This document shows, in pieces, positions 38,850-55,490 of a stretch of 64,000 nt of DNA (positions within the stretch are counted from its first letter, which is position 1; each line of letters begins with the position of its first letter). Origin of the DNA: Chlamydiota bacterium (GTDB lineage Bacteria; Chlamydiota; Chlamydiia; Chlamydiales; SM23-39); NCBI GenBank assembly GCA_013285585.1, contig JABDHH010000002.1, positions 8,198 to 72,197 on the forward strand, given 5' to 3'. A program made the position numbers and the translations under genes. The notes under the pieces are model-generated. The model saw nothing but the letters and a program-made list of their open reading frames with translations, made no database searches and was not told the origin of the DNA.

Positions 38850-38922
38850 GGGGCAATAGCTCAGCGGTTAGAGCAGCGGACTCATAACCCGTCGGTCTCT
38901 GGTTCAAATCCAGGTTGCCCCA
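38850..38922 (+). tRNA. tRNA with CAU anticodon (Met, or Ile2 if lysidine-modified); island integration site
   Basis: Acceptor GGGGCAA/TTGCCCC; D-arm TAGCTCAGCGGTTAGAGC; anticodon loop CTCATAA; T-arm CTGGTTCAAATCCAG. Overall similarity to ileX-type tRNAs. CCA is not encoded. Confidence 0.88.
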
Positions 38923-39086
38923 TCTCCATAACCAGCACAATCCACTGCACTTAAGGCGCATTCAGCTTGATCCAATATCAAGTTAAAGTTTAAAATATAC
39001 GCCGACGGTGCAATGGCGGTGCAACAAAGAATAATCTTAACCGGCAGCGCCATCCAACCCAAAACCGTTAACCCAAGGTTGGAATC

Positions 39087-40157
39087 ATGGCATCTATTTT
39101 CAAACGCAAAAACGAAGACGGAACGACCGTCTGGCGCGCGGTCGTCCGCATCAAGGGCTACCCTACCGTCTGCAATCATTTCGAACGCAAACAGGAAGCT
39201 GACGATTGGGCGAAGGACGTCGAAAGAAAGATCAAACTCGGCGAATTCAAGTTCGACCAACATAATCAAATCCGCACCTTTGCTGAACTTACGGATCGCT
39301 ACATCCAAGACGGCGCCCTTGAACACCATCGTTCAGCCGACGATACCAATCGCCATCTCGCCTACTGGAAAACCCGTCTAGGCGCCTACGCCCTCGTTCA
39401 CATCACTCCTGAACTTCTCGGAAAAGAGCGCCAGTTCCTCATCGATACTCCAACACCCAAGGGACGTAAACGAACGTCTTCCACAACGAACCGCTACTTC
39501 GCCTCCCTCTCCTCTCTTCTCACCTACGCGGCCCAACATCTTCGCTGGATCAGCGAGAATCCAGCTCTCCGCCTCATCAAACTCAAAGAGAACCCAGGTC
39601 GCGATCGCGTCCTGACGGAAGACGAGATCGCTCGCCTTCTTTCCGCCTCACGCACAAGCAAATCCCCTTATCTCTATTGCATCATCATCCTTTCTCTCAC
39701 GACCGGCGCTCGTCAGGGAGAAATCCTCAATCTCGAATGGAAACATATCGATTTCGAAAACAAAATCGCCTACATCAAGCAAAGCAAAAACGGCCGTCCT
39801 CGTAGCATCGCACTCTCTGATCCCGTTGTAGCCGAACTGCGCCGCCTCTACGATCTACGCAATCCGCAAAAACCTCTCGTATTCGCTAGCAAGACTGCCT
39901 TCGGCCGCATCGACATCAAAAAAGCCTGGCAACAAGCTCTCAAACGCGCCTGCATCACAAATTGCCGGGCCCACGACATGCGCCACACTTTTTGCACTTA
40001 CGCCGCGGCAAAAGGAGCCTCCAATCTCCAGTTACAAACCGCCACGGGTCATCGCACTTTGTCGATGCTCCTCCAATACACACACATGGACGTAGAAGTC
40101 ACAAAACAGTTCAGTAACCAAATCTCGAACCAGATCCTGAAAGGAGAATCCCCATGA
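39087..40157 (+). CDS. int: Tyrosine-type site-specific integrase
   Basis: 356 aa. SAM-like N-domain and catalytic residues in TGARQGE (R), AHDMRHTF (HxxR) and GHRTLSMLLQYTH (H...Y). Confidence 0.93.
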   Translation: MASIFKRKNEDGTTVWRAVVRIKGYPTVCNHFERKQEADDWAKDVERKIKLGEFKFDQHNQIRTFAELTDRYIQDGALEHHRSADDTNRHLAYWKTRLGAYALVHITPELLGKERQFLIDTPTPKGRKRTSSTTNRYFASLSSLLTYAAQHLRWISENPALRLIKLKENPGRDRVLTEDEIARLLSASRTSKSPYLYCIIILSLTTGARQGEILNLEWKHIDFENKIAYIKQSKNGRPRSIALSDPVVAELRRLYDLRNPQKPLVFASKTAFGRIDIKKAWQQALKRACITNCRAHDMRHTFCTYAAAKGASNLQLQTATGHRTLSMLLQYTHMDVEVTKQFSNQISNQILKGESP

Positions 40158-40293
40158 ATCACGAATTGGTCCAACAACTTGTTGGCCAATTGTCGTTACG
40201 CGATACGACAATTGCCGCAGCTCCCAACATGGTAAGGATGTGGTACTTAAAAACAGGTTTACACAAACGTTACCAAAATGGTAACTTTTATAC

Positions 40294-40872
40294 ATGAGCA
40301 CAAGAAGTAAGCTTTTTGAAATAGCCGACCGTCAGCAAGGCTTTTTTACCACACGACAGGCGCAAGAATGCGGAATCTCACGCTCTCATTTTCATCGCAA
40401 ACTACTTTCTGGAGAATGGATAAAGGAGTTGAGAGGTATTTATCGCCTAGCTCACTACCCTGCCACCGATCGACCGGAACTTGTTCTTTGGACTCTTTGG
40501 AGCCGAGATAAAAAGGATCATCCCCAGGGGGTATGGTCCCATGATACAGCTCTCGATATTCATGATCTAAGCGACAACATGCCTTCGAAAATGCATATGA
40601 CTGTCCCGCTCCGATTCCGAAAACAAATCGCAATTCCTAAAGCGATCAAACTCTATTTTGCAAGCCTTTCCAAAAGCGACATCGAAATTTGTCAAGGATA
40701 TCGAGTCACCACACCCCTTCGCACTTTACTCGATGTAATTGCAGAAGGAAAAATTTCTCCAGACTTGATTGCTCAAGCAATACGTGAAGGACTGCGAAAA
40801 GGGATTCTTCTTCTTCGCGACGTAAATCAAACACCCCAACTTTTGAAATATAAACATGAATACAAAATTTAA
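40294..40872 (+). CDS. AbiEi-family (type IV TA) antitoxin / transcriptional regulator
   Basis: 192 aa. N-terminal winged-helix pattern LFEIADRQQGFFTTRQAQECGISRSHFHRKLLSGEWIKELRGIYRL, typical of AbiEi_4. Overlaps the toxin gene by 17 nt. Confidence 0.75.
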   Translation: MSTRSKLFEIADRQQGFFTTRQAQECGISRSHFHRKLLSGEWIKELRGIYRLAHYPATDRPELVLWTLWSRDKKDHPQGVWSHDTALDIHDLSDNMPSKMHMTVPLRFRKQIAIPKAIKLYFASLSKSDIEICQGYRVTTPLRTLLDVIAEGKISPDLIAQAIREGLRKGILLLRDVNQTPQLLKYKHEYKI

Positions 40873-41716
40873 AACTGCCGGAGCTTTCCGCACAAGCCTT
40901 GAAGCTCGCCTCAAGAATTTAGCTATTTCAACTGGCGAAGACCTCCAACGCCTTCGTCGCAAAGTCGCATTCGACCGATTCCTCGCAAGGATTTTCTCTC
41001 AAGAAAAACCGAAGTTTTTTCTCAAAGGTGGATATGCAATGGAATTGCGCATCGCCCATGCCCGAGCTACGAAAGACATTGACCTGACCTGCATTCGACG
41101 AGTGAAAAATGAAAACGAGCTTTTAAGTGAACTGATCTTAATCGATCTTCAAGACCTTTCTCAGCAAGATCTGAACGATCATTTCATCTATCAAGTTGGA
41201 AAGGCCCAGATCGACCTGGAAAACGCCCCATATGGAGGCGCCCGATATCCGGTTTCATCCTTGATCGGCGAGAAAATCTTTGTTCGCTTCCAGCTAGATG
41301 TAGGCGCCGATTTCCTTCTCGATCAGATTGAAACAATTCAAGGTTCCAACTGGCTTGAATTTTGCGGGGTTCCTGCACCGGTTATTCCCATGATTTCCAT
41401 TGAACAACAGTTCGCTGAAAAACTGCACACTTACACCTTGATTCGCGGTCAGAGAGTCAATTCCCGTGCAAAGGATCTAATCGATATGGTTCTTCTATTG
41501 AACATGAAAATTCCCAAGCCCGATGAAATGCTTCGCGCACTGCAAAAAGTCTTTAAAAAGCGCGATACCCATCCGCTACCGCAGAGATTAGACCCGCCGC
41601 CGAAAGAATGGAAATCTCAATTTATCAATATGGCAGCCGAGTGCGGTCTCACTCAGGATATGCAAGAGAGCTTCGAGAAAATATCAGACTTCTTCAATCG
41701 CATTATCACCATCTAG
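40856..41716 (+). CDS. AbiEii/AbiGii-family nucleotidyltransferase toxin
   Basis: 286 aa. FFLKGGYAMELR...ATKDIDL nucleotidyltransferase-fold motifs characteristic of AbiEii. Confidence 0.75.
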   Translation: MNTKFKTAGAFRTSLEARLKNLAISTGEDLQRLRRKVAFDRFLARIFSQEKPKFFLKGGYAMELRIAHARATKDIDLTCIRRVKNENELLSELILIDLQDLSQQDLNDHFIYQVGKAQIDLENAPYGGARYPVSSLIGEKIFVRFQLDVGADFLLDQIETIQGSNWLEFCGVPAPVIPMISIEQQFAEKLHTYTLIRGQRVNSRAKDLIDMVLLLNMKIPKPDEMLRALQKVFKKRDTHPLPQRLDPPPKEWKSQFINMAAECGLTQDMQESFEKISDFFNRIITI

Positions 41717-41731
41717 TGCAAAGGAATTCTC

Positions 41732-41848
41732 ATGAACAGCGCAAACGATCCTCTCGAAAAAGCGAAAGAAGTCCTCTGGCAAAAACTACAGCAAGCGATA
41801 GCACAAGCATGGCATCGGCTGGATGATGGTATTTTGAGGACACGATGA
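41732..41848 (+). CDS. Possible 38-aa small ORF coupled to the downstream gene
   Basis: Below the ORF-track cutoff. ATG with an AAAGGA RBS. Its stop overlaps the next start as ATGA (41845-41848). Product: MNSANDPLEKAKEVLWQKLQQAIAQAWHRLDDGILRTR. Confidence 0.3.
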   Translation: MNSANDPLEKAKEVLWQKLQQAIAQAWHRLDDGILRTR

Positions 41849-42537
41849 CAGGTAGACCTCCTGCTCAAAATGACTGTCTTGGAGGAATACTGTATCGTTC
41901 TCTATTTCCCACGGAAGAAGATCGTTATAAGGGATATTTCAAAGAGGATTGGTGGTCGCTTGAGGAATTTGCCTGTTTAATGGCTGGGACGATTCCTGAA
42001 GTCTATCAGGGGATATTGGCAAAGAATGAAAAATACATGAACCTCAAAAATATCAAAAGAGCGCTTGAAGCGAACAAGATCTTTCGACGTTTTTTGAGCG
42101 AAATTGAGGAGATACGTGTGACGGATGAAATTCGCCATGATCAAAACTACGCGATGTCATCTTGGCGTTTTATGAAGTGGGCGGCGATTAAGGATTTGCC
42201 GATTAAACGGCGTTTTTTGGATGCTCTGCCTTTTCCCCTCCTCGAAATTTTCTTGGAGTTTTTATCTGAAAACTCTCCATTACACACAAAGCCAAAATCC
42301 AGTCAGGCATATCATAGAGCCCTCTACTTGAAAGCTGCCAAAAATTTGGTCGGCAAATTTGAATACAGGCTAAGCAGAGACGAAATCTATGATCATCCAC
42401 GTATGCAGAGCGCTCTTCGTCAGATCAGAGCTCTTGGAGGTCACTACAAGAAAAGGACGATCACAGATGCATGGCTGGCCCAATTGGAAGAGCGCAAGAA
42501 AGGCCGTCCAAAAAAGAAGGAATTAATCGAAAAATGA
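41845..42537 (+). CDS. Hypothetical island protein
   Basis: 230 aa. No motif recognised. Confidence 0.5.
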   Translation: MTGRPPAQNDCLGGILYRSLFPTEEDRYKGYFKEDWWSLEEFACLMAGTIPEVYQGILAKNEKYMNLKNIKRALEANKIFRRFLSEIEEIRVTDEIRHDQNYAMSSWRFMKWAAIKDLPIKRRFLDALPFPLLEIFLEFLSENSPLHTKPKSSQAYHRALYLKAAKNLVGKFEYRLSRDEIYDHPRMQSALRQIRALGGHYKKRTITDAWLAQLEERKKGRPKKKELIEK

Positions 42538-42672
42538 AGTACACAAGGGATCAATTAAATACAGTGTCAATACCTCTCTAAAAACCATCTCCTCTATGTA
42601 GAAAAATACAGTCTCTAATCCGGCCTTAAAAAAATCCAGTATCATTGAGCTTAATCCAAGGAGTTGAACTAA

Positions 42673-42879
42673 ATGGAAGCTTATACTTACTGGTCCCCTC
42701 AACAAATTGTATCAAGCGGGCGATATCCTTTTACGATGGGTCAGATCCGCCATCTGCTTCTCTACCGGCATAGGAACAATCTTGAAAAAGTAGTGAGAAA
42801 AGTCGGTAAACGTCTTGTTTTCAGAATGGATTTGTTCGATCAATGGATTGAAGAACAAGCCTCCCAGTCATCCCGATAA
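42673..42879 (+). CDS. AlpA/excisionase-like helix-turn-helix protein
   Basis: 68 aa. ...FTMGQIRHLL...VRKVGKRLVFRMDLFDQWIEEQ matches the short MerR-superfamily excisionase pattern (G-R/K-x-x-F...W). Confidence 0.6.
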   Translation: MEAYTYWSPQQIVSSGRYPFTMGQIRHLLLYRHRNNLEKVVRKVGKRLVFRMDLFDQWIEEQASQSSR

Positions 42880-44602
42880 CGAGGTTTTTGTGGAATTTCA
42901 TTCCTTTATAGAAATCCTCGAAACAAAAACGGCTAAATCTCTGAAAAAAACAGGTTCTGGCTTCATGGCTTGTTGCCCAGCTCATGACGATGATAATCCG
43001 AGCCTTTCGGTTAGAGAAGGATGCGATGGGAAAATTCTCTTAAAATGCTTTACTGGGTGTCCCCTAGACGCTATATGCGCTGCGCTTGGTCTAGAAGTAT
43101 CCGACCTGTTCGAATCCGATTTCTCTTCCAAAAACTCCATGACACGAACCGTCTATTCCTACACAGATGAAGATGGCCGCGAACTCTATCGAAAAATCCG
43201 TATTGAACCGGGCTACGACGGCAAAGCAAAAAGCTTCTACTCGGAACGTGTCGATGAAAACGGTCAGATCATTCGAAGCCTCCAAGGATGCCGCAGGATT
43301 CTTTACCGGCTGCCAGAGGTCCTGAAAGGGATTGCCGAAGGCAAAACAATTTATCTTGTCGAAGGGGAGAAAGATGCCGATAACCTCCATTCCATCGGCC
43401 TTGTTGCAACGACTTCTCCAGAGTCTCTCAAATGGTCCGATGAATTCACGGAATCCCTCAAGGGGGCTGACGTAGTCATCCTCTACGACATGGATGAGAC
43501 AGGGCTGAAGCGAAAAGAGATTCTCTGCAAGAGCCTTGCTAACAGGGTAAAACGGCTCCGGGTTGTCGATCTCCCCGGACTCGAATTCCAGAAATCCCAC
43601 GGTCCTGATGTCAGTGATTGGTTGATGCGGGGGCATATGACCGAGGAGCTCATTGAGCTCACTGAGAAAACGTCCGATTACAGACTTGCGGAACCTACTA
43701 GTAGAATCCGTGCCGTTACCCTCGATGAGTTTCTCCTGATGGAATTGCCTAAGCGGGAGATGATTCTATCGCCCTTCTTGCCTTCGCAAGGACTTGGCCT
43801 TCTTTACGCTAAACGGGGGGTGGGGAAAACTCACGTCGCACTCGGGATTGCCTATGCGGTAGCCACGGGAGGAGCCTTCTTGAAATGGCAAGCTCCCAAG
43901 CCGCGAAAGGTGATCTACATTGACGGCGAGATGCCGGCGCCTGCAATGCAGGAGAGATTGAAACGTATTTCAGTGGGCGAAGATCTGAAGCCGCCTGATC
44001 CTACCTACCTCCGCCTGGTGACACCCGATTTGCAAGAGGGCCCAATGCCCGATCTTTCTTCCAAAGAAGGAAGAGAGGCTCTCGAACCACTCATCGTCGA
44101 TTGCGATTTAATCATCATCGATAACATTTCGACCCTTTTTCGCAGCGGCGATGAGAATGAGGCGGAGAGCTGGCAACCCATTCAAGATTGGGGCTTAAGC
44201 CTACGCAAAAGAGGAAAGTCAATCCTTTTTGTCCATCATGCAGGCAAAAGCGGCCAGCAAAGAGGAACCAGCAAAAAAGAAGATACCCTCGATGTAGTGA
44301 TCAATTTGAAGCCCCTGCAAGGGCACTCTTTGGAAGAGGGAGCGGCTTTTGAGGTCATTTTCGAGAAGACGCGTAATTTCGCCGGCGAGGGAGCTGCCGA
44401 TTTCCAAGTTCGCCTTCGAGTTCAAGACGATGGTCTTTGGAAATGGGAAATAGAAGAACCGGAAGTCGATCCGGAGGTCGTAGCAGTGGCACAATCCTGC
44501 AAAGAGGGGTTGACCATCGACCAGATCAGAAAGAAAACCGGGCTCACCAAGTCGCAGGTTGAAACAAGAAAGGGAAAAGCTAAAAAACAAGGACTTATAT
44601 GA
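42815..44602 (+). CDS. P4-alpha-like DNA primase (CHC2 zinc finger + Toprim) fused to a RepA/AAA_25-type ATPase
   Basis: CCPAHDDDNPSLSV...KCFTGC zinc finger. Toprim IYLVEGEKDADNL and VILYDMDETG. Walker A KRGVGKTH, Walker B LIIIDNIS. The probable true start is the GTG at 42890 (RBS GAGG), just after the upstream stop. Confidence 0.85.
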   Translation: MFSEWICSINGLKNKPPSHPDNEVFVEFHSFIEILETKTAKSLKKTGSGFMACCPAHDDDNPSLSVREGCDGKILLKCFTGCPLDAICAALGLEVSDLFESDFSSKNSMTRTVYSYTDEDGRELYRKIRIEPGYDGKAKSFYSERVDENGQIIRSLQGCRRILYRLPEVLKGIAEGKTIYLVEGEKDADNLHSIGLVATTSPESLKWSDEFTESLKGADVVILYDMDETGLKRKEILCKSLANRVKRLRVVDLPGLEFQKSHGPDVSDWLMRGHMTEELIELTEKTSDYRLAEPTSRIRAVTLDEFLLMELPKREMILSPFLPSQGLGLLYAKRGVGKTHVALGIAYAVATGGAFLKWQAPKPRKVIYIDGEMPAPAMQERLKRISVGEDLKPPDPTYLRLVTPDLQEGPMPDLSSKEGREALEPLIVDCDLIIIDNISTLFRSGDENEAESWQPIQDWGLSLRKRGKSILFVHHAGKSGQQRGTSKKEDTLDVVINLKPLQGHSLEEGAAFEVIFEKTRNFAGEGAADFQVRLRVQDDGLWKWEIEEPEVDPEVVAVAQSCKEGLTIDQIRKKTGLTKSQVETRKGKAKKQGLI

Positions 44603-45540
44603 CAAATCAACAAATTTCCGATTTTCCGATTCTCATAGAAAAAGAAGAAATCGGAAATGGGAAAAAGGAGGCAAAAATGACGACTGAAAAACAATTGAAT
44701 GCAAACCGCTTGAATGCCTTGCAGTCCACGGGGCCAAAAACAGACGAAGGCAAGGCAATCGTTTCCTCAAATGCTATGAGGCATGGCATTTTCACCAAGG
44801 ATTTGATCATTTCTTCCCACCTCGGTAAAGAAGACGAGAGGGAGTACATAGAAATGTTAACCAATCTGATAGGCTGTCTCGCTCCGCAGAATCAAATGGA
44901 AAGCTTGCTGGTCGAAAAAATCGCAATCGATTTTTGGAGACTGCGACGTGTGATACGATTTGAAGCCGGAAGCATTGGAAAATACCTTGAGACGATCTTC
45001 AACGATTTCTACTCCTACCCAAGAAAAACCAACAAGAAAATCGATACAGAAATAGAGGGGAAAAAGAAATATCTTGAATGGCTCTCTTCCTATATGGAAT
45101 GTCTCAAAAAGGAAGAAGTAAGCTTTGATCAACCTATGTGGGAAGGAGAAGCGATTGAAAGCGATATTCTCGAGGACTTCTATCTCATCATCAAAACCAT
45201 AGACACCATCCCATATGCGGAGAAAGAGAAATTGTTGTACGGCGACAGTAGTTTCGCGCAGTTGAAAAAGATTCTGGAGCAGCATGGATATTCTTCGAAA
45301 AAAGAAATTTCCGCAAAGCTCATTGAGGTCTCTGCACAACAAAGACGGCAGCTCGAAGAAGAAATTGAGAAATTAGAGCACGAAAGAGTCGCCAATATCG
45401 AGGCTGACAAGCTCAATAGAATGCTTGGGACGCTTCCCCAAGAAGACAATACAGAAAAAATCCTAAAGTATGAGCGGTCTATACAAAAGTCGATTTTTCA
45501 AAATCTCTTCCTATTGAAGAAGCTGCAAGGGTCGTTCTAG
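44599..45540 (+). CDS. Hypothetical coiled-coil island protein
   Basis: Probable start is the ATG at 44677 (AAGGAGG RBS), giving MTTEKQLNANRLNALQSTGPKTDEGKAIVSSNAMRHGIF... The rest is helical and charged. Confidence 0.5.
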   Translation: MTNQQISDFPILIEKEEIGNGKKEAKMTTEKQLNANRLNALQSTGPKTDEGKAIVSSNAMRHGIFTKDLIISSHLGKEDEREYIEMLTNLIGCLAPQNQMESLLVEKIAIDFWRLRRVIRFEAGSIGKYLETIFNDFYSYPRKTNKKIDTEIEGKKKYLEWLSSYMECLKKEEVSFDQPMWEGEAIESDILEDFYLIIKTIDTIPYAEKEKLLYGDSSFAQLKKILEQHGYSSKKEISAKLIEVSAQQRRQLEEEIEKLEHERVANIEADKLNRMLGTLPQEDNTEKILKYERSIQKSIFQNLFLLKKLQGSF

Positions 45541-45646
45541 AAAATGGGTTTGTTTTGGAAAAAATGCTTCGACTTTGTTCATAGCTTGCGACTCAAGGAT
45601 TATCAACCCCGATCTTTCGTTGATCCCCAGCAATGATTTCAGCCAA

Positions 45647-46768
45647 TTAGTCAGTCCGTAGTAAATCGATCATTTCTTTGACTGAATCCACGATGATCTG
45701 AGGCTGATTGAGCGTCACCATGTGGTCGCTTTCCTCGGCAAAAATCTGCTTCCCTCGCGTCGATTTGGTCACAAGATCTTTTTGAAGCTCTTTGAAGGGA
45801 ATATGAATAGCATCAATTTGCTCCTGAGTAAGACCACTGCCCTCCACAGAGATCGCTTTGACGGCTGAGATAACGATGAGCAGCTTATCGCCTAGATGAC
45901 CGCCTGCGGCTTTCAGTTGATCGCAACTAGTTTTGAAATGGGATGATTCTTGAAGGACAGTGCGCATGAACTTTGTAGTACGCAATTGAGCCAGGAGCTG
46001 CTTTTGGACTTGTTCCGGGAAAGCTGCAACAACGCCTTTCTTATACATTGCCGTATGAGTGAAAAGACGAATGATTCCAAGATGGGTAGCAAGCATCATC
46101 ATGGTAGGATGCAACTGCGGCCTGGGTATTTTTTCATATTGATCTTCATGAGCGGAATCGACAAGAACGACGCCAAGTACTTTATCTGGGTGCAGACTCG
46201 CAAAAAGACGCATATCGAGTCCTCCGAAGGAATGCCCCACTAGGATGTAGGGGCCCGGGATATTCGCCTTGCAGAGAGCAGTATGAAGCTCGGTAACGAT
46301 GTTTTGGCTAGTCCTTTCTAGAGGGCTTTCATCGCTCCAGCCATTGCCTGGCCGATCAAATGAGGTGACTCGGGTAAATTTGGCGATCTCTGGTTGAACA
46401 AGTGACCACCCGAGGGCATTGCAACCCAGCCCAGCATCGAGAACAACGGTCGGTCCACCCGTGCCTGTAGTGTAGAGATGCATATTGTAACCGCCGACAT
46501 CGACAAGCTTGCCAATGGGTGGATATTTCTTGGCATCGATTTTTGTGCTCACTACCTGATAGAGAGCTCCGCTAATAGCAAGCGTAGCGAGGGTACCGGC
46601 CAGGCCAAGCCCTACCCATTTAGTCCAGTTCCAAAACATAAGTGATTTCCCTGAAGTAGTCTGACTGTTAATTGCGGAGTGAAATGAATGAGTCTGCGGC
46701 CGAACGATCCGGCTTGACCCGAGAATGCTCGTCGAGAAAGAACGGAAAATATTTTTCAAACTATTCAT
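45647..46768 (-). CDS. Alpha/beta-fold hydrolase with an N-terminal TM anchor
   Basis: 373 aa. Nucleophile elbow GHSFGG; HTTGTGGPTVVLDAG oxyanion region; C-terminal DH. Confidence 0.8.
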   Translation of the reverse strand: MNSLKNIFRSFSTSILGSSRIVRPQTHSFHSAINSQTTSGKSLMFWNWTKWVGLGLAGTLATLAISGALYQVVSTKIDAKKYPPIGKLVDVGGYNMHLYTTGTGGPTVVLDAGLGCNALGWSLVQPEIAKFTRVTSFDRPGNGWSDESPLERTSQNIVTELHTALCKANIPGPYILVGHSFGGLDMRLFASLHPDKVLGVVLVDSAHEDQYEKIPRPQLHPTMMMLATHLGIIRLFTHTAMYKKGVVAAFPEQVQKQLLAQLRTTKFMRTVLQESSHFKTSCDQLKAAGGHLGDKLLIVISAVKAISVEGSGLTQEQIDAIHIPFKELQKDLVTKSTRGKQIFAEESDHMVTLNQPQIIVDSVKEMIDLLRTD

Positions 46769-47547: not shown

Positions 47548-47562
47548 AAATAGTCTCCCGGA

Positions 47563-47585
47563 TTGTATATATTACCAGAATACAA
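47563..47585. promoter_or_regulatory. Candidate MerR operator palindrome
   Basis: TTGTAT-N11-ATACAA perfect dyad, 16 nt upstream of the merR-family start codon. Confidence 0.35.
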
Positions 47586-47862
47586 CATTACGTTACGTCA
47601 ACTGCAACAGGCATTTATTAAAAAAAATACGATAGAGAAACTAACTTTCTATTACCATCTCAATTAAAGTTTGGACAAGAAATGGTTATTTTTTCTCAAA
47701 GAATCAGCAGACTAAGGCTATTTGGCATAGTGAGGGGTAAGTAGATGCACGTACTTTGGACTTTAGAGATCAATGGGGCCCGTTCCATGGCATGCCCTAT
47801 ACAAGAATCCTTATGGACGATATTGAGAGAAACCGATCAAAAGTCATAGCTTGTGCAACAAA

Positions 47863-48624
47863 TCACTCTTGATCCTTGAGGTGTTTCCGGACCGCTGACC
47901 GATAGTTGCAAAAATCGCAGGACGCCTTAACCTGCGGGAATTCATCCGATTCAAGACATACGCGAATCTCGAACAGGGTCGGCTCTACCCAGGAATCGTC
48001 ACCCGCATAGGGAAGAACGGAAATAGAAAACTCCAATTTCCCTCCGAAACGGTCCTTCGAATCATCCCCGTTGCAATAGATGAAATATCCCGTGTTCGAG
48101 ACCGAGAATCCTTTCCGTCTCAATAGCCACTGATAGACTTCGATCTGATTCTTCAACTTGGTCTTGTAGTCGCTGTCGTCCAATTGGATTTCTTTGGGAG
48201 TCGCGGTTGCCTTGTAGTCGACTACGATCAATTCCCCGGAGGAGCTGATCCAGAGATCGTCGATAGCGCCGGTAATGATGAAATTCGTCGGTTCGTGATG
48301 ATATTGGACTCCCTGGAAGTTCTCTCTCCAAGCATCCAAATCAGGATGGGCATAGGGAACCGCCTCAATGCCTTGTTCAATCATTAAAGGATGAGGCACT
48401 TGGTTGGACCGGCATAGATCGAATTCTTTTTTAAGCAGGGTGTCGACTGCCGTGTTCAAGCGAAAGGGCGGTCCACCGGGCTGACCCGTCCCGCAACGTC
48501 GATCGATGTAAAAGCACCGCGGGCAATCGAGGAAATTCTGGATTTTTGTGCGACTAAGTTTGAAAGGCTTCGGGTTTTTTGGATAAAACAAATTTCTGGA
48601 ACGTTGTGAGTTGTAATTGCTCAT
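47863..48624 (-). CDS. PD-(D/E)XK nuclease, Cas4/RecB-like, with Cys cluster
   Basis: 253 aa. CPRCFY near the N-terminus, IDDLW...LIVVDYK core, QIEVYQWLL (QxxxY), C-terminal C...CDFC. This pattern resembles Cas4-type Fe-S nucleases. Confidence 0.55.
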   Translation of the reverse strand: MSNYNSQRSRNLFYPKNPKPFKLSRTKIQNFLDCPRCFYIDRRCGTGQPGGPPFRLNTAVDTLLKKEFDLCRSNQVPHPLMIEQGIEAVPYAHPDLDAWRENFQGVQYHHEPTNFIITGAIDDLWISSSGELIVVDYKATATPKEIQLDDSDYKTKLKNQIEVYQWLLRRKGFSVSNTGYFIYCNGDDSKDRFGGKLEFSISVLPYAGDDSWVEPTLFEIRVCLESDEFPQVKASCDFCNYRSAVRKHLKDQE

Positions 48625-48912
48625 AAAATTTTTTAGACGGACTCCGTTTTTTTGGAATAAAAAGATTTTTTCTCACTTTGTAATGTAAGTAAAAAATTTC
48701 ACACAACTACAATAATTAACTTCAGAATGACTTAATAACACAAAGTACAGTAGCATAATTTAGGATAAAAAACGAAATTGAAAAAATAATTGATATCCAG
48801 GACTTCCCTGTGCTACGGAAAGAAAAAATAGGAGAAGGAAGCGAGAACTTGGCCAAGCCGAGCATCATGCGCAACCTATTGATCCTAAAGTAGCTTTTAA
48901 GGGAAAAATACA

Positions 48913-49908
48913 ATGAAAAGAAAACAAACCGAACTGTCAAAGAAAACTAGTTATCAGAAATTAAAAGCAAAGTATTCCGTAGTCTCGTTCTTTTGCGGCT
49001 GCGGAGGTCTCGATTTGGGATTTGCTGGGGGCTTTTCATATAAGGAGATTAAAATTCCGAAACTCCCCTTTGAAGTGCTCGCGGCTTATGACAACGACGA
49101 AAACTGTATTAAGACCTATCGTCAAAATATCGCCGATCACGCTGAGGTTAAAGACTTATCTAGTTACAATCCCCACTCATGTCCTCCTGCCGATATTCTA
49201 ATAGGAGGATTTCCTTGTCAGGACTTTTCTGTCTGTGGCCCACGAGCAGGCTTAAAATCACATCGTGGCAGGCTCTATCAAGCTCTCATCCAGTATATGG
49301 AAGTCCACAAACCAATGATCGTGGTTGGAGAAAATGTTCCTGGGCTAGCAAATGTAATGAAAGGCGAAATTCTTGAAACAATAAAAAAAGAGTTGAGTGG
49401 AGTAGGCTACCAAGTCGAGGTTTGGACTTTATTCGCTCCAGATTATGGTATTCCACAAAACCGAACAAGACTTTTCATAGTAGCGGTTCGTGATGATTTA
49501 AATGGTTTTCCAAGTATACCAATTAAAAAATACACAAACGAAGAATATCGCACAATAAAATGGGCAATTGATGATCTTAAACAACTAAGAGATGATTCCG
49601 TACCAAACCAATCTCAATATTTCAAAGCCGCAAAATCTAAAAACAGAAGTCAGGGAGACGAAACCTCCCCCGCAGATTCACCTTCATATACAATAAGAGC
49701 AAATTCCCATTCACATATTCAGTTCCATTACGCCTTGAAACGCCGCCTTACTGTCCGAGAATGCGCCAGAATTCAAACATTCCCAGATGATTTTATTTTC
49801 CCGCATTCCACTACCACCAACATGATGCAGATAGGTAACGCCGTGCCACCGTTATTAGGGAATATTGTGGCAAAATCAGTTTTTGAATTTTTAGAAAAAT
49901 TAAAGTGA
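48913..49908 (+). CDS. dcm: DNA (cytosine-5)-methyltransferase
   Basis: 331 aa. Motif I FFCGCGGLDLGF, IV GGFPCQDFS, VI GENVPGL, VIII QNRTRLFIVA, IX RRLTVRECARIQTFPDDF, X GNAVPP. Confidence 0.93.
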   Translation: MKRKQTELSKKTSYQKLKAKYSVVSFFCGCGGLDLGFAGGFSYKEIKIPKLPFEVLAAYDNDENCIKTYRQNIADHAEVKDLSSYNPHSCPPADILIGGFPCQDFSVCGPRAGLKSHRGRLYQALIQYMEVHKPMIVVGENVPGLANVMKGEILETIKKELSGVGYQVEVWTLFAPDYGIPQNRTRLFIVAVRDDLNGFPSIPIKKYTNEEYRTIKWAIDDLKQLRDDSVPNQSQYFKAAKSKNRSQGDETSPADSPSYTIRANSHSHIQFHYALKRRLTVRECARIQTFPDDFIFPHSTTTNMMQIGNAVPPLLGNIVAKSVFEFLEKLK

Positions 49909-52274
49909 AAATGAACGAATTAATTGATCAAGTTGTTGATATTACACCAACACCAAGAATATTGCGTACTCTTGGAGATATTCCATTTGCTGCGTGGCAA
50001 TGCTTAGCTGAACTTATGGATAATTCTTTGGATGCTTTCAATGATGCGGAGAGCAAAGGAAAGATCATTAGCAAACCAAGGATCGATATCCACTGGTCAA
50101 GCGATATGGTACCCGCCAAAGATCGTGAAATTGTAATTGAAGATAATGGCCTAGGCATGAGCCTCGAAGTTATGCAAAAAGCAGCCAAGGCTGGTTATTC
50201 AAATAATGATCCGATTCATAATTTAGGTTTATTTGGGATGGGATTTAATATCGCCACAGCCCGTCTTGGTGATGAAACCATATTTTTATCTACTACCTCT
50301 GAAAGCAATGAATGGGTTGGGATCAAGATCAGTTTTGAGCAACTCATAAAAGATCAAACCTTTTCAGCTCCCATCATCAGAAAGCCAAAAAAGAATGCGC
50401 AAGAATCCGGAACAAAAATTATTGTACGGAATTTAAAAGATGGAGTGTTTGGAGAAATGCATAGAAAGGAAGGGGCGATCCGCCGACAACTTGAGACAAT
50501 ATATACTCCGATTTTAAACAAAAATAAAATTCCCGTATTCATTCAAGGGAAACAGCTCTCGCCGCGCCCACATTGTGTATGGAGCGATTCTAGGTTTGCA
50601 ATAAAAAAAGGCGTTAAAGTTGAAGCGATCCAACACATAAATCGTGATTTAGGAGAAACATATTTCGACATATCTAGAAATAGATATCTCACTGAAGCAG
50701 AGTCAATTGAATTAGATATTCTTGCTAGCAAAAGTAACGCATCTCTTCCACAAAAAATAGTCAAACGTTCTCGTAGACTCAAGGGTTGGATTGGGATTCA
50801 ACGGTTTGCCGACCCGACTGATTTTGGAATCGACTTTGTGAGAAATGGCCGAAAAATACTTGTCTCCGATAAGTCTCTCTTCGGATATGAGAATCCCGAT
50901 ACTGGAACTTATACCTCGGAATATCCGCTAGAATTGGGATCGACAATTGGTGGTCGAATTGTCGGTGAATTACATGTCGATTATTTGATACCAACATACC
51001 AAAAAAATGGTTTTGACACTTCGGATAAAGCATGGCGCTTAACCGTTGATGCAATAAGAGGCGCTGGCCCAATACTTCCTAAAAAAAGGGACATTTTAGG
51101 ATACGACGGAGAGAATGATTCTCCTCTCGGAAAACTTGTAAATACCTACAGAAGAACAGATCCAGGAACTAAAAATCTCGCAATAACCAATTCGTTGGCA
51201 AAAGACTTCTCAAAACGTTTCTTTGCTGGTGAGCCAGAGTATCAATCGGATGAAAAATGGTACAAAATCGCCCAAGAATCTGACCGGGAGCGTGGAGAGG
51301 GGGAAACCGGGCTAACCCCAGTCAACAGCGGTACCTCACCTTCAGACGATGTTACTATTTACACTGATTCAGAAAGTTCACCAAGTAAAAATGAAAACAC
51401 AAATATATCTCCTTCAAATTTAGTCGTCGGCTCGACGAGTCCCATTACTTCTGAGAGAGATCAACTTATTCAACACTCTGAAAAAGAAGCAGCAATCTCA
51501 GGTAAATATTCCTACGACAATCTCCCGGGTATGGAAATTACCGCATGGCGTTTGCGAGATAGGCATATACGAGTTCATGGAAAACGCGTTCCTTCTCATT
51601 TATTTCAAGACGGAGTTGAAGTAGATTTTTTTTATGACCCAACTCATTCGATCCTCTCGGAATATCCTTTGTCCCCCAAACAACTTCTACTCCAAGGACT
51701 AGCCGAAAAGTTCGCATTGCGCGATCCCGGGGTTTCAATTCAGTCAGCATTTCTTGGATTAATCGACAATCATTTATCTGAAGAACGAATTAATGCTCAG
51801 GCTTTACAAGAACGCGCTTACTCTATTGCATCCAGCATCCGCGAAAAATTACCAGCTCTTTTGGGGCATCGGTTTTCTAAAGTAAAAGAAATTATCCAAT
51901 CGGTAGAAAGTGAGGAGGAAGAACTCGCGAAAAAGCTTCTAGATGAGGCGCCGCAATTTCTTGTCGCATATCAAGAATCAAGCAATGAAGCCGCACGATC
52001 TTTAGCATATGTTTGCGATGCCACAATCAAACGATTTATAGCAGAATTTCCAGAAGAATTCATGGACAAAAAATTATTTGCTCAGCCGTATATAAACTTA
52101 AAAATTGGTAGCGAATCAACATGCGACCGATTACGTAAAAACTCACTCGAAAGAGTACTCTCGTATTTTTCAGATATCGTCCTGCTGCTTCAAGGTGGAA
52201 GAGTTCAAAACAAGTATGAGCTTCTACGACATTCAAACACACTCTCTCTTCTCGAAGGCTTGTTAGTGGATTAA
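49905..52274 (+). CDS. GHKL (Bergerat-fold, MORC/HATPase_c_3-like) ATPase, 789 aa
   Basis: N-box ELMDNSLDA, G1 IEDNGLGM, G2 GLFGMGFN within the first 130 aa. I do not recognise the long C-terminal region. Start GTG overlaps the dcm stop (GTGA), or ATG 2 nt after it. Confidence 0.75.
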   Translation: MKMNELIDQVVDITPTPRILRTLGDIPFAAWQCLAELMDNSLDAFNDAESKGKIISKPRIDIHWSSDMVPAKDREIVIEDNGLGMSLEVMQKAAKAGYSNNDPIHNLGLFGMGFNIATARLGDETIFLSTTSESNEWVGIKISFEQLIKDQTFSAPIIRKPKKNAQESGTKIIVRNLKDGVFGEMHRKEGAIRRQLETIYTPILNKNKIPVFIQGKQLSPRPHCVWSDSRFAIKKGVKVEAIQHINRDLGETYFDISRNRYLTEAESIELDILASKSNASLPQKIVKRSRRLKGWIGIQRFADPTDFGIDFVRNGRKILVSDKSLFGYENPDTGTYTSEYPLELGSTIGGRIVGELHVDYLIPTYQKNGFDTSDKAWRLTVDAIRGAGPILPKKRDILGYDGENDSPLGKLVNTYRRTDPGTKNLAITNSLAKDFSKRFFAGEPEYQSDEKWYKIAQESDRERGEGETGLTPVNSGTSPSDDVTIYTDSESSPSKNENTNISPSNLVVGSTSPITSERDQLIQHSEKEAAISGKYSYDNLPGMEITAWRLRDRHIRVHGKRVPSHLFQDGVEVDFFYDPTHSILSEYPLSPKQLLLQGLAEKFALRDPGVSIQSAFLGLIDNHLSEERINAQALQERAYSIASSIREKLPALLGHRFSKVKEIIQSVESEEEELAKKLLDEAPQFLVAYQESSNEAARSLAYVCDATIKRFIAEFPEEFMDKKLFAQPYINLKIGSESTCDRLRKNSLERVLSYFSDIVLLLQGGRVQNKYELLRHSNTLSLLEGLLVD

Positions 52275-53968
52275 TGGAAAATCGTCTAAAAAATTTTCTC
52301 ACACCATCTGTAATGCAAGGTGGAGACTGGCGAACGTTGGAGCATGCTGTATCACGCATTTTACTACATTGCGGATGGCGAGATATCCAATATGTAGGTG
52401 AAAGCGGAGATAAAGGAGCCGACGTTTTAGCGGTTAGATATAACTCAGCTAAAGCAGTCGATGATTCTTATCTTATTCAGGTTAAAGCCGTCAATTCGAA
52501 TTCTTATGTAGGCAAATCTGCCGTAGATCAAGCACTAAAGGGGCAATCCTATTACAAGGCCAGAATTGTTGTGATCGCTACAAACGGTGAATTCACCCGC
52601 TCTGCCTATCAGCGTAGAGATGAGTTAATTAAGGAAGGCTATGATGTTAGGTTGTGGAATGGCGCATTTTTATTGGATCTTGTCGATAAATGGGAGGACT
52701 ACAGTTCAGAGCGTAGAAATCTGCGCGAATATCAAGCAAGAATTAGTGATTCAATCATCAAGAGCTATATTAAAGGATGTCGAAAGTCCCTTTTCATAGT
52801 CGCCACGGGCCTTGGAAAAACTGTGATAGCCTCCGTTATCGCTGATAAACTCTATCACCAGGGACTAAAAAAGATCTTAGTTCTATGCCATTCAACGGAT
52901 TTGGCGTTTCAATTACAAAAAGCATTCTGGGGGCAAATATCCAAACAAATTTCAACAAGACTCTTCATGGACGGAGAACCGCCTGTCCCCATAGATGGCA
53001 TTAATTTTGGCCTTTATCAGACTTTATTCGGGTATCTTGGAGGTATTGAGCCTCATGCCTTTGATCTCATTATAGTGGACGAAGCGCACCACGCTCTAGC
53101 TAATGCATTTGCCACATGCATTCAATATCTCAGTCCAAAATTACTCGTTGGCATGACAGCTACACCTTGGCGAGGAGACGGCACTTCAATAGAGTCTATA
53201 TTTGGAGAGCCCATTGAACGTATTTCTCTCGTGGATGGGATGCGCATGGGATATCTTGCTAAAGTTGATTATAGACTAATGTGCGACAACATCGACTGGA
53301 ACGAAATTCCAAACCTGGCAAAGAACTCTCTTACAATTCGAGATCTTAACAAAAAACTATTTCTCCCCCAGAGAGACGATGCGGTAATTGCGCAACTTCT
53401 GGATGTAGCTACGAAAATTCAAAATCCAAAAATCGCGATTTTCTCCCCTTCGAAAAATCATGCGGAGACATTTGCTGGGAAATTAGTTTCAGCCGGAATC
53501 TCAGCCGCCAATATGTCCGTTAATGACAAGGTGAAAAGAAGACAGATTCTCTTAAATTTTTCAGCGGGCAAAATCAAAGCCATAACTGCTGTAGATGTAT
53601 TGAATGAAGGAATTGACGTTCCGGATGTCAATATCTTAGTTTTCCTGCGGGCAACACATTCTCGTCGTATTTTTATTCAGCAATTAGGACGGGGTCTTAG
53701 AATTTCTTCTGGCAAGAACAAAGTGATCGTATTAGATTTTGTAACCGATATTCGTCGAATTGCCGCTGTAAGAGAACTCGATAAAGAAGCGAAATCCGAG
53801 CCTAAACCATCTGAAATCGAAACCGTTTTTCTTCGAGATGGAGTCGTAACATTTAGTAACGAGAGAGTTCAGAATTTCGTAGATGCCTGGTTGGATGATG
53901 TCACTAGTCTCCAGGATAGCGAGGATGCGGAAAAGTTAGCATTTCCCAATACCGATGGTTGGTTATGA
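52274..53968 (+). CDS. Mrr-type restriction-endonuclease domain fused to an SF2 (ResIII/DEAH) helicase
   Basis: N-terminus: GDKGADVLA...IQVK...ATNGEFTRSA...LWNG (Mrr_cat pattern). Helicase motifs: I ATGLGKT, II IIVDEAHH, III MTATPWR, V/VI VDVLNEGIDVP, QQLGRGLR. Start overlaps the upstream stop (TAATG). Confidence 0.85.
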   Translation: MENRLKNFLTPSVMQGGDWRTLEHAVSRILLHCGWRDIQYVGESGDKGADVLAVRYNSAKAVDDSYLIQVKAVNSNSYVGKSAVDQALKGQSYYKARIVVIATNGEFTRSAYQRRDELIKEGYDVRLWNGAFLLDLVDKWEDYSSERRNLREYQARISDSIIKSYIKGCRKSLFIVATGLGKTVIASVIADKLYHQGLKKILVLCHSTDLAFQLQKAFWGQISKQISTRLFMDGEPPVPIDGINFGLYQTLFGYLGGIEPHAFDLIIVDEAHHALANAFATCIQYLSPKLLVGMTATPWRGDGTSIESIFGEPIERISLVDGMRMGYLAKVDYRLMCDNIDWNEIPNLAKNSLTIRDLNKKLFLPQRDDAVIAQLLDVATKIQNPKIAIFSPSKNHAETFAGKLVSAGISAANMSVNDKVKRRQILLNFSAGKIKAITAVDVLNEGIDVPDVNILVFLRATHSRRIFIQQLGRGLRISSGKNKVIVLDFVTDIRRIAAVRELDKEAKSEPKPSEIETVFLRDGVVTFSNERVQNFVDAWLDDVTSLQDSEDAEKLAFPNTDGWL

Positions 53969-54543
53969 GCAGAGGTATACCAGAGAAAATTTCCAAAGAA
54001 ATAAAGGCGAAAGTTTTCCTTGAAGCTGATCGTATCAACTATCTTGCGCGAAATACCTCAGACAACAACGCATTTATTAACAATCTTGTTGCCATGCCAG
54101 AAGTTGGAGGAAGACTGTCTCAATTTATTAATAAAATGGAACTGCGCACGTACATCAAAGATGCAATTCTCCATAGATATTCAGAACAAAAAGCAAAAGA
54201 GAACCGACCAAATAAAATTGAGCCCATAATTAATGAATTAATGGGGATCACGGCGGAACTTCTTGAAACCGACCTTAAAAACCAAATAAATATTTTCAAG
54301 TCTCTTAACGACGGTCGTTTTATAGTAGTAACCGATGGAACCATTCTCAAATGGGAAACTGCTCTCCGCAAGGCTTTATTGTACATAACATCAAAACCTC
54401 TTTCAGATCAAAAAGAAATGAAAATCAGCATCATATTGACTCTTTTCGCAAGGCGTCAAAAAGTTTCTCCCTCAGATATGCGGCATCTCGAAAAAGCGCT
54501 ATCACTTTGCAATGCGGTTCCTTACGTTTACGGCGAAGGCTGA
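53959..54543 (+). CDS. Orphan 194-aa protein inside the methyltransferase/GHKL/helicase/Vsr operon
   Basis: ATG at 53965 overlaps the helicase stop (ATGA). The 3' end overlaps the vsr start by 32 nt. No motif recognised. Confidence 0.55.
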   Translation: MVMSRGIPEKISKEIKAKVFLEADRINYLARNTSDNNAFINNLVAMPEVGGRLSQFINKMELRTYIKDAILHRYSEQKAKENRPNKIEPIINELMGITAELLETDLKNQINIFKSLNDGRFIVVTDGTILKWETALRKALLYITSKPLSDQKEMKISIILTLFARRQKVSPSDMRHLEKALSLCNAVPYVYGEG

Positions 54544-54964
54544 ATTGGATAACATTAGCAGAGAAGAGAGAAGTCATGTCATGAGCTTGGTCAAACAAAA
54601 AAATACCAAGCCTGAAATTATTGTACGTTCTTTCTTACATCGGAAAGGACTTCGATATCGACTCCATGATAAAACTCTTAACGGAAAGCCAGATTTAGTA
54701 TTTCCAAAATACAAAACGATAGTTTTTGTTCATGGCTGTTTTTGGCATGGTCATGACTCCCCTTTGTGTAAATTGGCACGAACCCCCAAATCCAAAATCG
54801 ACTTTTGGACAGCCAAAGTTGTTAGAACTAAAGAAAGAGATACTAGCAATATGGCTATCCTAAAATCGACCGGCTGGCGCACATTAATCATTTGGGAATG
54901 CGAGTTATCGAAACAAGAATCATTAGAACGTTTGTTTCTCAACATCACGAATGAATCAAAATAG
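54512..54964 (+). CDS. vsr: Very-short-patch repair endonuclease
   Basis: 150 aa. RSHVMSLVKQKNTKPE...GLRYRLH...PDLVFPKYKTIVFVHGCFWHGH...FW..K...N..RD...GW..L.IWECE, collinear with E. coli Vsr. Confidence 0.92.
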   Translation: MRFLTFTAKAELDNISREERSHVMSLVKQKNTKPEIIVRSFLHRKGLRYRLHDKTLNGKPDLVFPKYKTIVFVHGCFWHGHDSPLCKLARTPKSKIDFWTAKVVRTKERDTSNMAILKSTGWRTLIIWECELSKQESLERLFLNITNESK

Positions 54965-55127
54965 GATGCTCTGGATGAAACAAGAGTAGACGGTGCACTG
55001 GCGGTGCAATAGACCTCCCCTTTAACCGGTTTTGATCGGTAGAATCCAGTTGCGCTATTTTCCCAACCAACTTATATTTATACCCATAAAGGTTGGATAG
55101 CGCTGGGTGGGATGGAATGCTCCCTCC

Positions 55128-55170
55128 CTCATAACCCGTCGGTCTCTGGTTCAAACCCAGGTTGCCCCAT
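55128..55170 (+). repeat. attR: 43-bp duplicate of the tRNA(CAU) 3' half
   Basis: CTCATAACCCGTCGGTCTCTGGTTCAAACCCAGGTTGCCCCAT versus 38881-38923, with a single T/C difference. Confidence 0.9.
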
Positions 55171-55466: not shown

Positions 55467-55490
55467 TGCGAACAAAAGGACTCACAAAGA

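Follow-up and report, generated by a model that had tools for sequence, protein, structure and literature searches.

A 16.3-kb Island at a tRNA-Met(CAU) Gene of a Chlamydiota Bacterium and Its Relatives: An Apparently Undescribed Family of tRNA-Integrating Elements with Defence Cargo

This report concerns an island of 16.3 kb that adjoins a tRNA gene in a genome assembly of a Chlamydiota bacterium (GCA_013285585.1). The DNA analysed, called the window below, is a stretch of 64,000 nucleotides (contig JABDHH010000002.1, positions 8,198 to 72,197, forward strand), and coordinates are positions within it unless another locus is named; related loci are cited by L numbers. From left to right, the locus holds the tRNA gene, the island, a second copy of the tRNA 3' end, a further 1.25 kb and a third copy. 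The island itself encodes a tyrosine integrase, an AbiE toxin-antitoxin pair, a replication protein, further backbone proteins, a hydrolase/MerR pair, a nuclease and a restriction-modification (R-M) operon (Table 1). The tRNA is one of three that ARAGORN calls across the whole window, and its name, tRNA-Met(CAU), covers both the elongator Met tRNA and the lysidine-modified Ile2 tRNA, which the program cannot separate; its paired 1:72 ends argue against an initiator identity.

Table 1. Features of the island, its attachment (att) sites and the adjoining segment (aa, amino acids; HTH, helix-turn-helix; SF2, superfamily 2)
Feature	Position	Strand	Basis or remark
tRNA-Met(CAU), integration target	38850-38922	+	ARAGORN; Rfam tRNA 66 bits
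attL core, 43 nt	38881-38923	+	from tRNA anticodon loop to one base beyond the 3' end
P' arm	38924-39086	+	GGTGCA at 39007 and 39018; TTAACCGG at 39037; GGTTGGA at 39053 (-) and 39077 (+)
Tyrosine integrase, 356 aa	39087-40157	+	Pfam Phage_integrase 1.7e-31; PHROG 1 integrase 3e-63
AbiEi antitoxin	40294-40872	+	Pfam AbiEi_4 8e-11; PADLOC AbiEi 1e-62
AbiEii nucleotidyltransferase toxin	40856-41716	+	Pfam AbiEii 1.6e-29; PADLOC AbiEii 2e-83
orf230, semi-conserved backbone gene	41845-42537	+	same position in L010, L016, L017, L021
orf68, candidate excisionase/regulator, HTH_17-like	42673-42879	+	always directly upstream of the primase gene
Replication protein	42815-44602	+	CHC2 zinc finger, Toprim DnaG-type primase, RepA/DnaB-like AAA_25 ATPase
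orf313, conserved backbone protein	44599-45540	+	helical with coiled coil
Alpha/beta hydrolase	45647-46768	-	Pfam
MerR-TipAS regulator	46765-47547	-	Pfam
PD-(D/E)XK Cas4-like nuclease	47863-48624	-	Pfam PDDEXK_1 2e-11; PADLOC Cas4 4e-9
Dcm methylase	48913-49908	+	Pfam DNA_methylase; PADLOC
GHKL ATPase, 789 aa	49905-52274	+	Pfam HATPase_c_3; N-box, G1 and G2 motifs readable
Mrr_cat + SF2 helicase	52274-53968	+	Pfam Mrr_cat + ResIII + Helicase_C
orf194, 194 aa	53959-54543	+	member of the R-M operon
Vsr endonuclease	54512-54964	+	Pfam; PADLOC
P arm	54989-55127	+	GGTGCA at 54992 and 55003; TTAACCGG at 55022; GGTTGGATAGCGCTGG from 55091
attR core of the 16.3-kb island	55128-55170	+	copy of the tRNA 3' 43 nt, 1 mismatch
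Putative remnant of older insertion	55171-56383	+	orf73, CPBP/Rce1-like protease, arm-like module
orf73, 73 aa, remnant	55245-55466	+	
CPBP/Rce1-like membrane protease, remnant	55491-56219	+	Pfam Rce1-like 6.5e-11
Third, outermost copy of the tRNA 3' end	56384-56426	+	3 mismatches

The partial tRNA copies define the locus. When the 43-mer was searched for with up to three mismatches, three copies were found in the window and none in 100 shuffles. The two that bound the island differ at one of 43 positions. An earlier note, written from the sequence of this DNA without database searches, had described an intact tRNA whose 3' end recurs about 16 kb away and an integrase immediately beside it, and both observations hold; the integrase gene starts 164 bp after the tRNA end. 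The note had also considered that the distal repeat might belong to a second complete tRNA gene. The DNA that precedes copies two and three on the left shows no alignment to the tRNA 5' half, neither ARAGORN nor Rfam calls an additional tRNA between 38000 and 57500, and an Rfam scan for other RNAs found the tRNA alone. A recombinase beside a tRNA gene and a distal direct repeat of the tRNA 3' end are what generically marks a tRNA island, and the window has both. The outer boundary that had been proposed needs revision: the repeat ending at 55170 is present, but the inserted DNA does not end with it, and the third att copy extends the insertion to 56426.

Just within both island ends lies a 21-nt direct repeat, GACGGTGCA(A/C)TGGCGGTGCAA (39004-39024 and 54989-55009), for which zero matches are expected by chance. 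Each copy consists of two GGTGCA hexamers whose starts are 11 bp apart, with TTAACCGG 13 bp further on. GGTTGGA boxes stand at 55091 (+), 39053 (-) and 39077 (+), the last directly before the integrase start codon. The resulting module, GGTGCA-N5-GGTGCA-N13-TTAACC, is kept whichever tRNA is the target. In an alignment of the P' arm (A5), GGTGCAA and GGTGCA are invariant across eight family members that target tRNA-Met, tRNA-Lys and tRNA-Thr, and the P arm is conserved in L011, L014, L017 and L018 (alignment A6). Across these arm alignments, of up to eight elements, the core between the arms varies with the target tRNA. Judged from their sequence, the arm blocks have the pattern expected of arm-type binding sites for the integrase (Int) and/or a small HTH protein, and their conservation is a good, though indirect, sign that selection acts on the recombination apparatus. 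The opposite extreme, that nothing was inserted here and that chance repeats or a partial tRNA duplication lie among ordinary chromosomal genes, has as its sole supporting point the lack of an experimentally verified empty site. The three copies of the 43-mer against zero expected from the shuffles, the adjacent integrase, the conserved arms, the composition shifts described below and the att-bounded elements of relatives all speak against it, and we give it next to no credence. Very probably, the region is an integrated element belonging to a family of att-bounded elements of 10 to 16 kb.

The backbone genes of the island are concerned with integration and replication. The integrase is full length, with the R...HxxR...H...Y catalytic motifs readable in its translation, and its relatives, which range from 94% (L005) down to 48% identity, each lie beside a tRNA. 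Downstream, the replication protein matches Zn_ribbon_DnaG and AAA_25 (1.6e-28) of Pfam, the dnaG domain of NCBIfam and the primase/helicase group of PHROG, so the fusion of a CHC2/Toprim primase to a RepA-type ATPase that the earlier note had read from the translation is borne out. The Toprim motifs VEGEKD and DxD are invariant in the primase alignment (A2), and the true start of the protein is probably downstream of the TTG at 42815. The semi-conserved orf230 has no match in Pfam, NCBIfam, PHROG or PADLOC. The small orf68 had been called an AlpA-like excisionase. A small HTH-like reading frame does stand upstream of the primase gene, but the AlpA identity is weakly supported: no domain matches at E ≤ 0.01, Phage_AlpA does not match at all, and the HTH_17 match is below threshold (E 0.025, with 15 bits where the cutoff is 27). 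Among 12 aligned orf68 proteins, HTH_17 is matched weakly by eight and DUF6462 by nine. The C-terminal pattern KIGKR...R.DLF..WIE resembles the winged helix of excisionases, and a single-sequence structure model (predicted local distance difference test score, pLDDT, 72) gave no structural match. An excisionase-type role for orf68 is thus plausible, not proven.

After the primase gene comes orf313, which is probably a protein of 287 aa with its start at 44677. It has 341 homologs, none of which bears a Pfam domain, and in PDB or BFVD its AlphaFold model (pLDDT 75.5) matches generic coiled coils and nothing else. Its N-terminal motif, NA..STGP.T.EGK..S..NA.KHG (window 44677-44800), which no Pfam family covers, turns up again in far shorter proteins whose genes follow the primase in other members (L016 12576-12818; L027 11399-11842). 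The PD-(D/E)XK nuclease is likewise a backbone gene, located at the left edge of the slot that holds the large cargo genes, and homologs are found at the same place in L011, L014, L021, L167, L168 and L172.

The remaining genes are accessory. AbiEi and AbiEii overlap by 17 nt and form an AbiE type IV toxin-antitoxin pair; the same slot is filled by an AbiE pair in L015. This toxin-antitoxin or abortive-infection pair probably stabilises the island in the cell. The hydrolase/MerR pair is an insertion relative to the closest relatives and is absent in L172-L175. The stretch from 48913 to 54964 is a single tight operon of co-oriented, overlapping genes (Dcm, GHKL, Mrr-helicase, orf194, Vsr), and its GHKL-helicase-small reading frame order, together with Dcm and Vsr, recurs on two unrelated plasmids, from Ruegeria and Rhodococcus. 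To our knowledge, the MORC/paraMORC class of R-M systems has been predicted from gene context and has had no biochemical characterisation. The prediction was made by Iyer, Abhiman and Aravind in 2008 (PMC2292703), and the class has in common with the island operon a cytosine methylase, Vsr, a GHKL ATPase and an SF2 helicase that bears a domain of the restriction-endonuclease fold. The Dcm/GHKL/Mrr-helicase/Vsr operon is accordingly a predicted MORC/paraMORC-type R-M system. Every domain in the cargo list of the earlier note, from AbiE through the MerR and hydrolase pair and the Cas4-like nuclease to the methylase/GHKL operon, was found.

The base composition of the locus is mosaic, as the same note had suggested. 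The G+C fraction (GC) is 0.497 in the flanks, 0.462 in the backbone (38923-48650) and 0.405 in the R-M operon, where the third-position value (GC3) is about 0.34 (0.32-0.38) versus 0.62-0.70 in the flank genes. The AT-rich block does not, however, end at 55 kb as had been thought: GC is 0.391 at 55171-56383 and 0.415 at 56427-56999, and low GC continues to about 57000. GC skew is -0.15 to -0.26 over roughly 37-41 kb, a stretch that takes in a major facilitator superfamily (MFS) gene, the tRNA and the integrase, and is near zero over the rest of the island.

The 1.25 kb beyond attR, which contains no integrase gene, is best considered together with the third att copy. At 56245-56270 stand two TCCGCA hexamers with 11-bp spacing and, after them, TTAACCGG. 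The distance from there to the third core, on the right, is 139 bp, against 136 bp between the start of the GGTGCA pair and the core in the main island. Homology of this arm to the P arm of the family was rejected because the two do not align, and what they have in common is an analogous repeat layout at the same distance. The arrangement hints that an arm from another, similarly built element survives in the remnant. By the usual logic for tandem insertions, the outer segment would be an older element and the third att copy the oldest site and true outer edge, because successive insertions enter the regenerated tRNA (Hackl et al., bioRxiv 10.1101/2020.12.28.424599). An orphan AbiEi gene in L018 (17927-18505), 80% identical in aa sequence to the AbiEi of the window, lies just outside the attR of that locus and suggests that tandem remnants also exist at the sites of other members. 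Between the third core and the heme o synthase gene (cyoE), a 573-bp spacer folds at -134 kcal/mol (z = -14.9). It contains a 168-bp imperfect palindrome (56434-56601), with a 98%-identical copy 22 kb away at 34156-34322, and a second, unrelated palindrome of about 160 bp at 56755-56916. These palindromes look like repeats of the miniature inverted-repeat transposable element (MITE) or repetitive extragenic palindrome (REP) kind.

Comparison with the closest relatives shows which parts of the locus move. On the right, cyoE belongs to a cox operon, and its best homologs are Chlamydiales proteins and proteins of Chlamydiota metagenome-assembled genomes (MAGs). L001 (92% nt identity) is collinear with the window up to 57001, the end of cyoE, and then diverges. 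Use of the cyoE side to look for an empty site was rejected, since synteny with L001-L004 breaks off immediately after cyoE and these loci lack a tRNA at that place; the right flank, not being conserved, is no basis for defining an empty site. Nor is any gene common to the right flanks of related elements, after attR, across species. On the left, two soil-metagenome contigs (L005 and L006) have flank genes with 96-97% nt identity, the same tRNA and a 94%-identical integrase, and their homology ends at 40141, the end of the integrase gene, where unrelated convergent genes come next. Four further contigs from the same metagenomes (L172-L175) carry primase and orf313 genes of 93.6% nt identity, with homology ending at 45563, after the end of orf313. 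The next genes there encode a fusion of PD-(D/E)XK to T5orf172, 60% identical in aa sequence to the nuclease of the window, and then an N6_N4 methylase. From the two breakpoints it follows that modules have been swapped, namely the hydrolase/MerR pair, the R-M operon and the nuclease, and the stepwise change of cargo that the earlier note had deduced from composition is confirmed by the different genes beyond each breakpoint. More distantly, an integrase of 62% identity stands at the same tRNA in L009 (76% nt), and L007 (77% nt) has neither an integrase nor the arm motif within the 292 bp available after its tRNA-Met, which appears unoccupied. Content at the site therefore varies, with L005/L006, L172-L175 and L007 all differing from the window. 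L005 (73-3286), a relative of 93% identity, has after its integrase a set of convergent genes for proteins of 714 aa (containing tetratricopeptide repeats), 115 aa and 222 aa. The 714-aa and 222-aa proteins have a common C-terminal motif, VRVMPG..SP.P.QQ.PY(V/I)V, and the 115-aa and 222-aa proteins a common N-terminal domain; the set looks like a toxin/immunity-type cassette.

These comparisons bear on whether the island is a resident that no longer moves, an old insertion fixed at tRNA-Met in which the cargo alone turns over by recombination. Integrase islands do occur at the same tRNA-Met site in several species: L014 and L018 share the neighbouring orf399 and MFS genes with the window, and L021 and L025 share orf399. 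The closest relatives keep the integrase and the primase/orf313 pair and differ in the modules between, and a circular form was not detected. Such a history is hard to square with an integrase that is full length and has its catalytic motifs, with a module of predicted binding sites kept in both arms, or with att cores that differ at a single position. The integrase, at 89.8% nt identity to the closest relatives, is more diverged than the adjoining chromosomal genes, which tells against simple co-inheritance, and the family occupies many different tRNA genes with the site of at least one relative apparently unoccupied. Loss of mobility is therefore a doubtful explanation, though one with some claim to be kept in view. 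The capacity of the island itself to excise still today we rate as evenly balanced.

The element proposed here is not an isolated case. At E ≤ 1e-10, homologs of the primase-ATPase number more than 2000, and the best 120 of these are all at least 54% identical over nearly the full length; those with a named host come from Parachlamydia, Neptunochlamydia, Simkaniaceae and further MAGs of Chlamydiota. Scanning a single genome for each species gave 258 relatives, and loci were obtained for 77. Searches of these loci with the island proteins (tblastn) revealed a shared gene order: integrase, variable genes (AbiE, DUF1016/YhcG or Fic), orf230, orf68, primase-ATPase, orf313 or another small protein, PD-(D/E)XK on the opposite strand and then large cargo genes. 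This backbone order is found in L010, L011, L014-L018, L021, L025, L045, L167 and L168. Besides the four loci at the same tRNA-Met site, the targets include tRNA-Lys (L010, L017), tRNA-Asn (L022) and tRNA-Thr (L045, whose right end was not located). In L011, L014, L017, L018, L022 and L025, the elements measure 10.5-14.5 kb between repeats of the tRNA 3' end. The cargo slot contains Type I R-M genes in L011, L045 and L167, a split Type IIG-like pair in L014, HmaA/HmaB in L021, a giant Mrr-helicase in L018 and ResIII with an N6_N4 methylase in L168. The claim that such islands are rare in Chlamydiae is thus overturned by the number of primase homologs and by dozens of islands with the same backbone at tRNA genes in representatives of environmental Chlamydiota. 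It is also not the case that all relatives have the same genes at this locus and lack repeat boundaries, which the earlier note had considered fatal to its proposal; relatives carry att-bounded elements with differing genes at the site. Two independent Logan contigs, L167 and L168, start (1-60) inside the tRNA T-arm, about 180 bp before the integrase gene. Such starts are as expected if assemblies break at the repeated att core, a warning that islands of this kind fragment metagenome assemblies.

A sister architecture has the same primase followed by a large serine recombinase, both in Chlamydiota (L020, L024, L027) and in Dependentiae/Babeliales (L029, L037). The chlamydial L020 and L024 have an orf313-like gene between the primase and the serine recombinase. 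The recombinase begins with MKAI.LARVSSK..E.GQSI and abuts an opposite-strand tRNA or transfer-messenger RNA (tmRNA) gene; serine-type elements lie at tRNA-Tyr, -Asn, -Gln or -Asp or tmRNA genes, with the primase at about 10001-11700 of the loci. The Dependentiae loci are on contigs of up to 393 kb or on closed chromosomes, and five share one tRNA-Asp/Asn/Val site, so they are not binning artefacts. One closed chromosome of 2.28 Mb (OY970364.1) contains both a tyrosine-type (L011) and a serine-type (L030) element. Literature searches found no description of the family in Chlamydiae or Dependentiae within the corpus that could be searched. The general kind of island, a tRNA-integrating element, is familiar, and the family is apparently undescribed but widespread. 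The broadest reading, to which we give a little less than an even chance, is that of an undescribed family spanning two phyla: self-replicating defence carriers that integrate at tRNA or tmRNA genes, are built on the DnaG-primase/RepA-ATPase, orf313 and the PD-(D/E)XK nuclease, swap between tyrosine and large serine recombinases and, in the tyrosine branch, keep one arm code with a retargeted core.

How the island would have arrived can be outlined on this basis. The tyrosine integrase would have recombined the att site of the element with tRNA-Met(CAU) between the anticodon loop and the 3' end, an exchange that would have restored the tRNA and placed the displaced 43-nt copy at the distal end. 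The site would already have held the older element, of which the right 1.25 kb and an att copy survive. By analogy with lambda- and P4-type biology, Int and the small HTH protein, acting as directionality factor, would excise the element as a circle that the primase-ATPase could replicate. AbiE would work as an addiction or abortive-infection module, and the right-end slot beside the PD-(D/E)XK gene would acquire defence cassettes. Several results weigh against this picture of a mobile, self-replicating element. The attP-junction pattern is absent from IMG/VR and from all fetched loci, and none of the family contigs is circular as judged by terminal overlap. Tandem-repeat and repeat searches gave no convincing iterons or replication origin, the excisionase assignment of orf68 rests on sub-threshold matches, and no long clean contig with an empty site was recovered, L007 offering just its 292 bp. 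Domain searches of the island found no relaxase, origin of transfer (oriT), type IV secretion system (T4SS), terminase or capsid genes. Given that no relaxase, oriT, terminase or capsid gene was found, the element would be unable to transfer on its own.

One route around this last obstacle would make the island an integrative mobilizable element or integrated plasmid, moved by a T4SS encoded elsewhere, such as the F-like tra system of Parachlamydiaceae and Simkaniaceae. T4SS gene sets are known on chlamydial plasmids and chromosomes (PMC7846284; PMC548262), and replication by a RepA/DnaB-like AAA_25 ATPase is a plasmid-type function. Additionally, Estrella lausannensis has a 9.1-kb plasmid that is reported to encode an integrase, an excisionase, a DNA primase and a toxin-antitoxin module (PMC4333871), which shows that this gene set can be a free circle in Chlamydiales. 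Against mobilization stand the failure to recognise a relaxase or oriT in the island or its relatives, the absence of T4SS genes from the loci examined, and the absence of a close relative among 72,556 PLSDB plasmids, where the best match is 32% identical and partial. Either orf230 or orf313 might conceivably be a non-canonical relaxase. On balance, we regard mobilization by a T4SS as rather unlikely.

The integrated element and its relatives go beyond the routine in several respects: the breadth of the family in two phyla, att sites with conserved arms and a variable core, the exchange of tyrosine for serine recombinases and the consistent defence cargo. Chlamydiota and Dependentiae are obligate intracellular bacteria of protists, and bacteria with this way of life are usually thought to have few routes of gene exchange. 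The literature found on gene exchange in Chlamydiae centres on plasmids and one F-like tra island. Environmental chlamydiae host, in addition, a common modular family of tRNA-integrating islands with a slot for restriction, Hma, Abi and similar cargo, which offers a concrete vehicle for the flow of defence genes in amoeba-associated bacteria, including across phyla to Dependentiae. If the two-phylum reading is true, the family could be the main vehicle of restriction and abortive-infection systems among these bacteria in shared amoebal hosts. The conserved arms and changing core provide a natural system for studying how tyrosine integrases are retargeted, and the integrase, the defined att sites and the replication protein could supply parts for a genetic toolkit in chlamydiae, organisms that are difficult to manipulate.

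In terms of known systems, the first comparison is with satellite P4, since the earlier note had spoken of a P4-like backbone. There is likeness in the integrase beside a tRNA, the small HTH gene upstream of a large primase-helicase, the arm repeats that flank the core and the defence hotspot. As a statement of homology, the claim fails: P4 alpha matches the primase at E 0.68 and P4 Int matches the integrase at E 0.031. The integrase scores 20 bits against NCBIfam PRK09692, and no Escherichia or Enterobacteria record is among the phage matches listed for the primase in tblastn (25 of 151 records) or in their summary by organism, which covered all but 6 organism groups. P4 Psu, Sid, Delta and epsilon gave nothing better than E 0.2 against the island in tblastn and no Pfam match; Psu, delta, Sid and Ash are absent from it. 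The att cores differ as well, with 43 bp from the anticodon loop in the island and an annotated core of 20 bp in P4, and P4 alpha carries a superfamily-3 helicase where the island protein has a RepA/DnaB-like AAA_25 ATPase. Under the seven components by which SatelliteFinder defines P4-like satellites (PMC10085698), the island falls outside that group.

The closest minimal-satellite analogue is the PICMI of Vibrionaceae, a minimalist chromosomal island inducible by phage, which has an integrase, an AlpA-type HTH protein and a primase as the minimal set required to excise and replicate, and no packaging genes (PMC10803314). PICMIs are about 6 kb long, lie downstream of fis, work with DUF3987/DUF5906 primases and have a helper phage that was demonstrated (PMC10803314); the island, in contrast, has 16 kb, a tRNA target, a DnaG-type primase and no known helper. 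The likeness raises the idea that the island is a phage satellite of the minimal integrase, AlpA and primase kind, PICMI-like or a cargo-carrying relative in the manner of the tycheposons of Prochlorococcus, induced by a helper and packaged in its capsids. Integrase, small HTH protein and primase are the mandatory PICMI set (PMC10803314) and equally the hallmark of tycheposons, which are likewise found in tandem with partial tRNAs. Some relatives encode, after the primase, a small HTH protein with a weak match to HTH_Tnp_1_2, a phage/transposase family (E 4e-5), and hotspots of defence cargo are described as typical of satellites (PMC13586616). Set against this, satellites of the PICI, cfPICI and PICMI kinds are marked by packaging or capsid-redirecting genes or by a demonstrated helper phage, and searches of the members yielded neither a terminase nor capsid, cos or pac functions. 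No close relative is present among 2.9 million IMG/VR contigs or in INPHARED, where the best viral matches are partial and at most 50% identical, and we know of no isolated tailed phage of Chlamydiota. A phage satellite is in our judgement an improbable identity for the island.

Returning to the integrated, possibly self-replicating element, the plasmid of Estrella lausannensis mentioned above has, by description, the gene set expected of an excised island; it differs in having a partition protein, which the island does not have. It may be the free form of a related element. The closest functional analogues of the island are, however, the tycheposons. These elements integrate at tRNAs, are flanked by partial tRNA repeats and form tandem arrays with degraded remnants, and they carry a tyrosine or, in a minority, large serine recombinase, an excisionase, a primase/helicase and variable cargo (Hackl et al., bioRxiv 10.1101/2020.12.28.424599). 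Their hosts are free-living marine cyanobacteria, whereas those of the present family are the obligate intracellular Chlamydiota and Dependentiae. Their cargo serves nutrient acquisition, and every member examined here carries defence genes instead. In addition, orf230, orf313 and the PD-(D/E)XK nuclease are specific to the island family, among whose members no capsid or terS variants were seen. For all these differences, every feature of the tycheposon architecture is present in the window or in its relatives, with orf68 as the candidate excisionase, and the likeness is one of how the elements would work.

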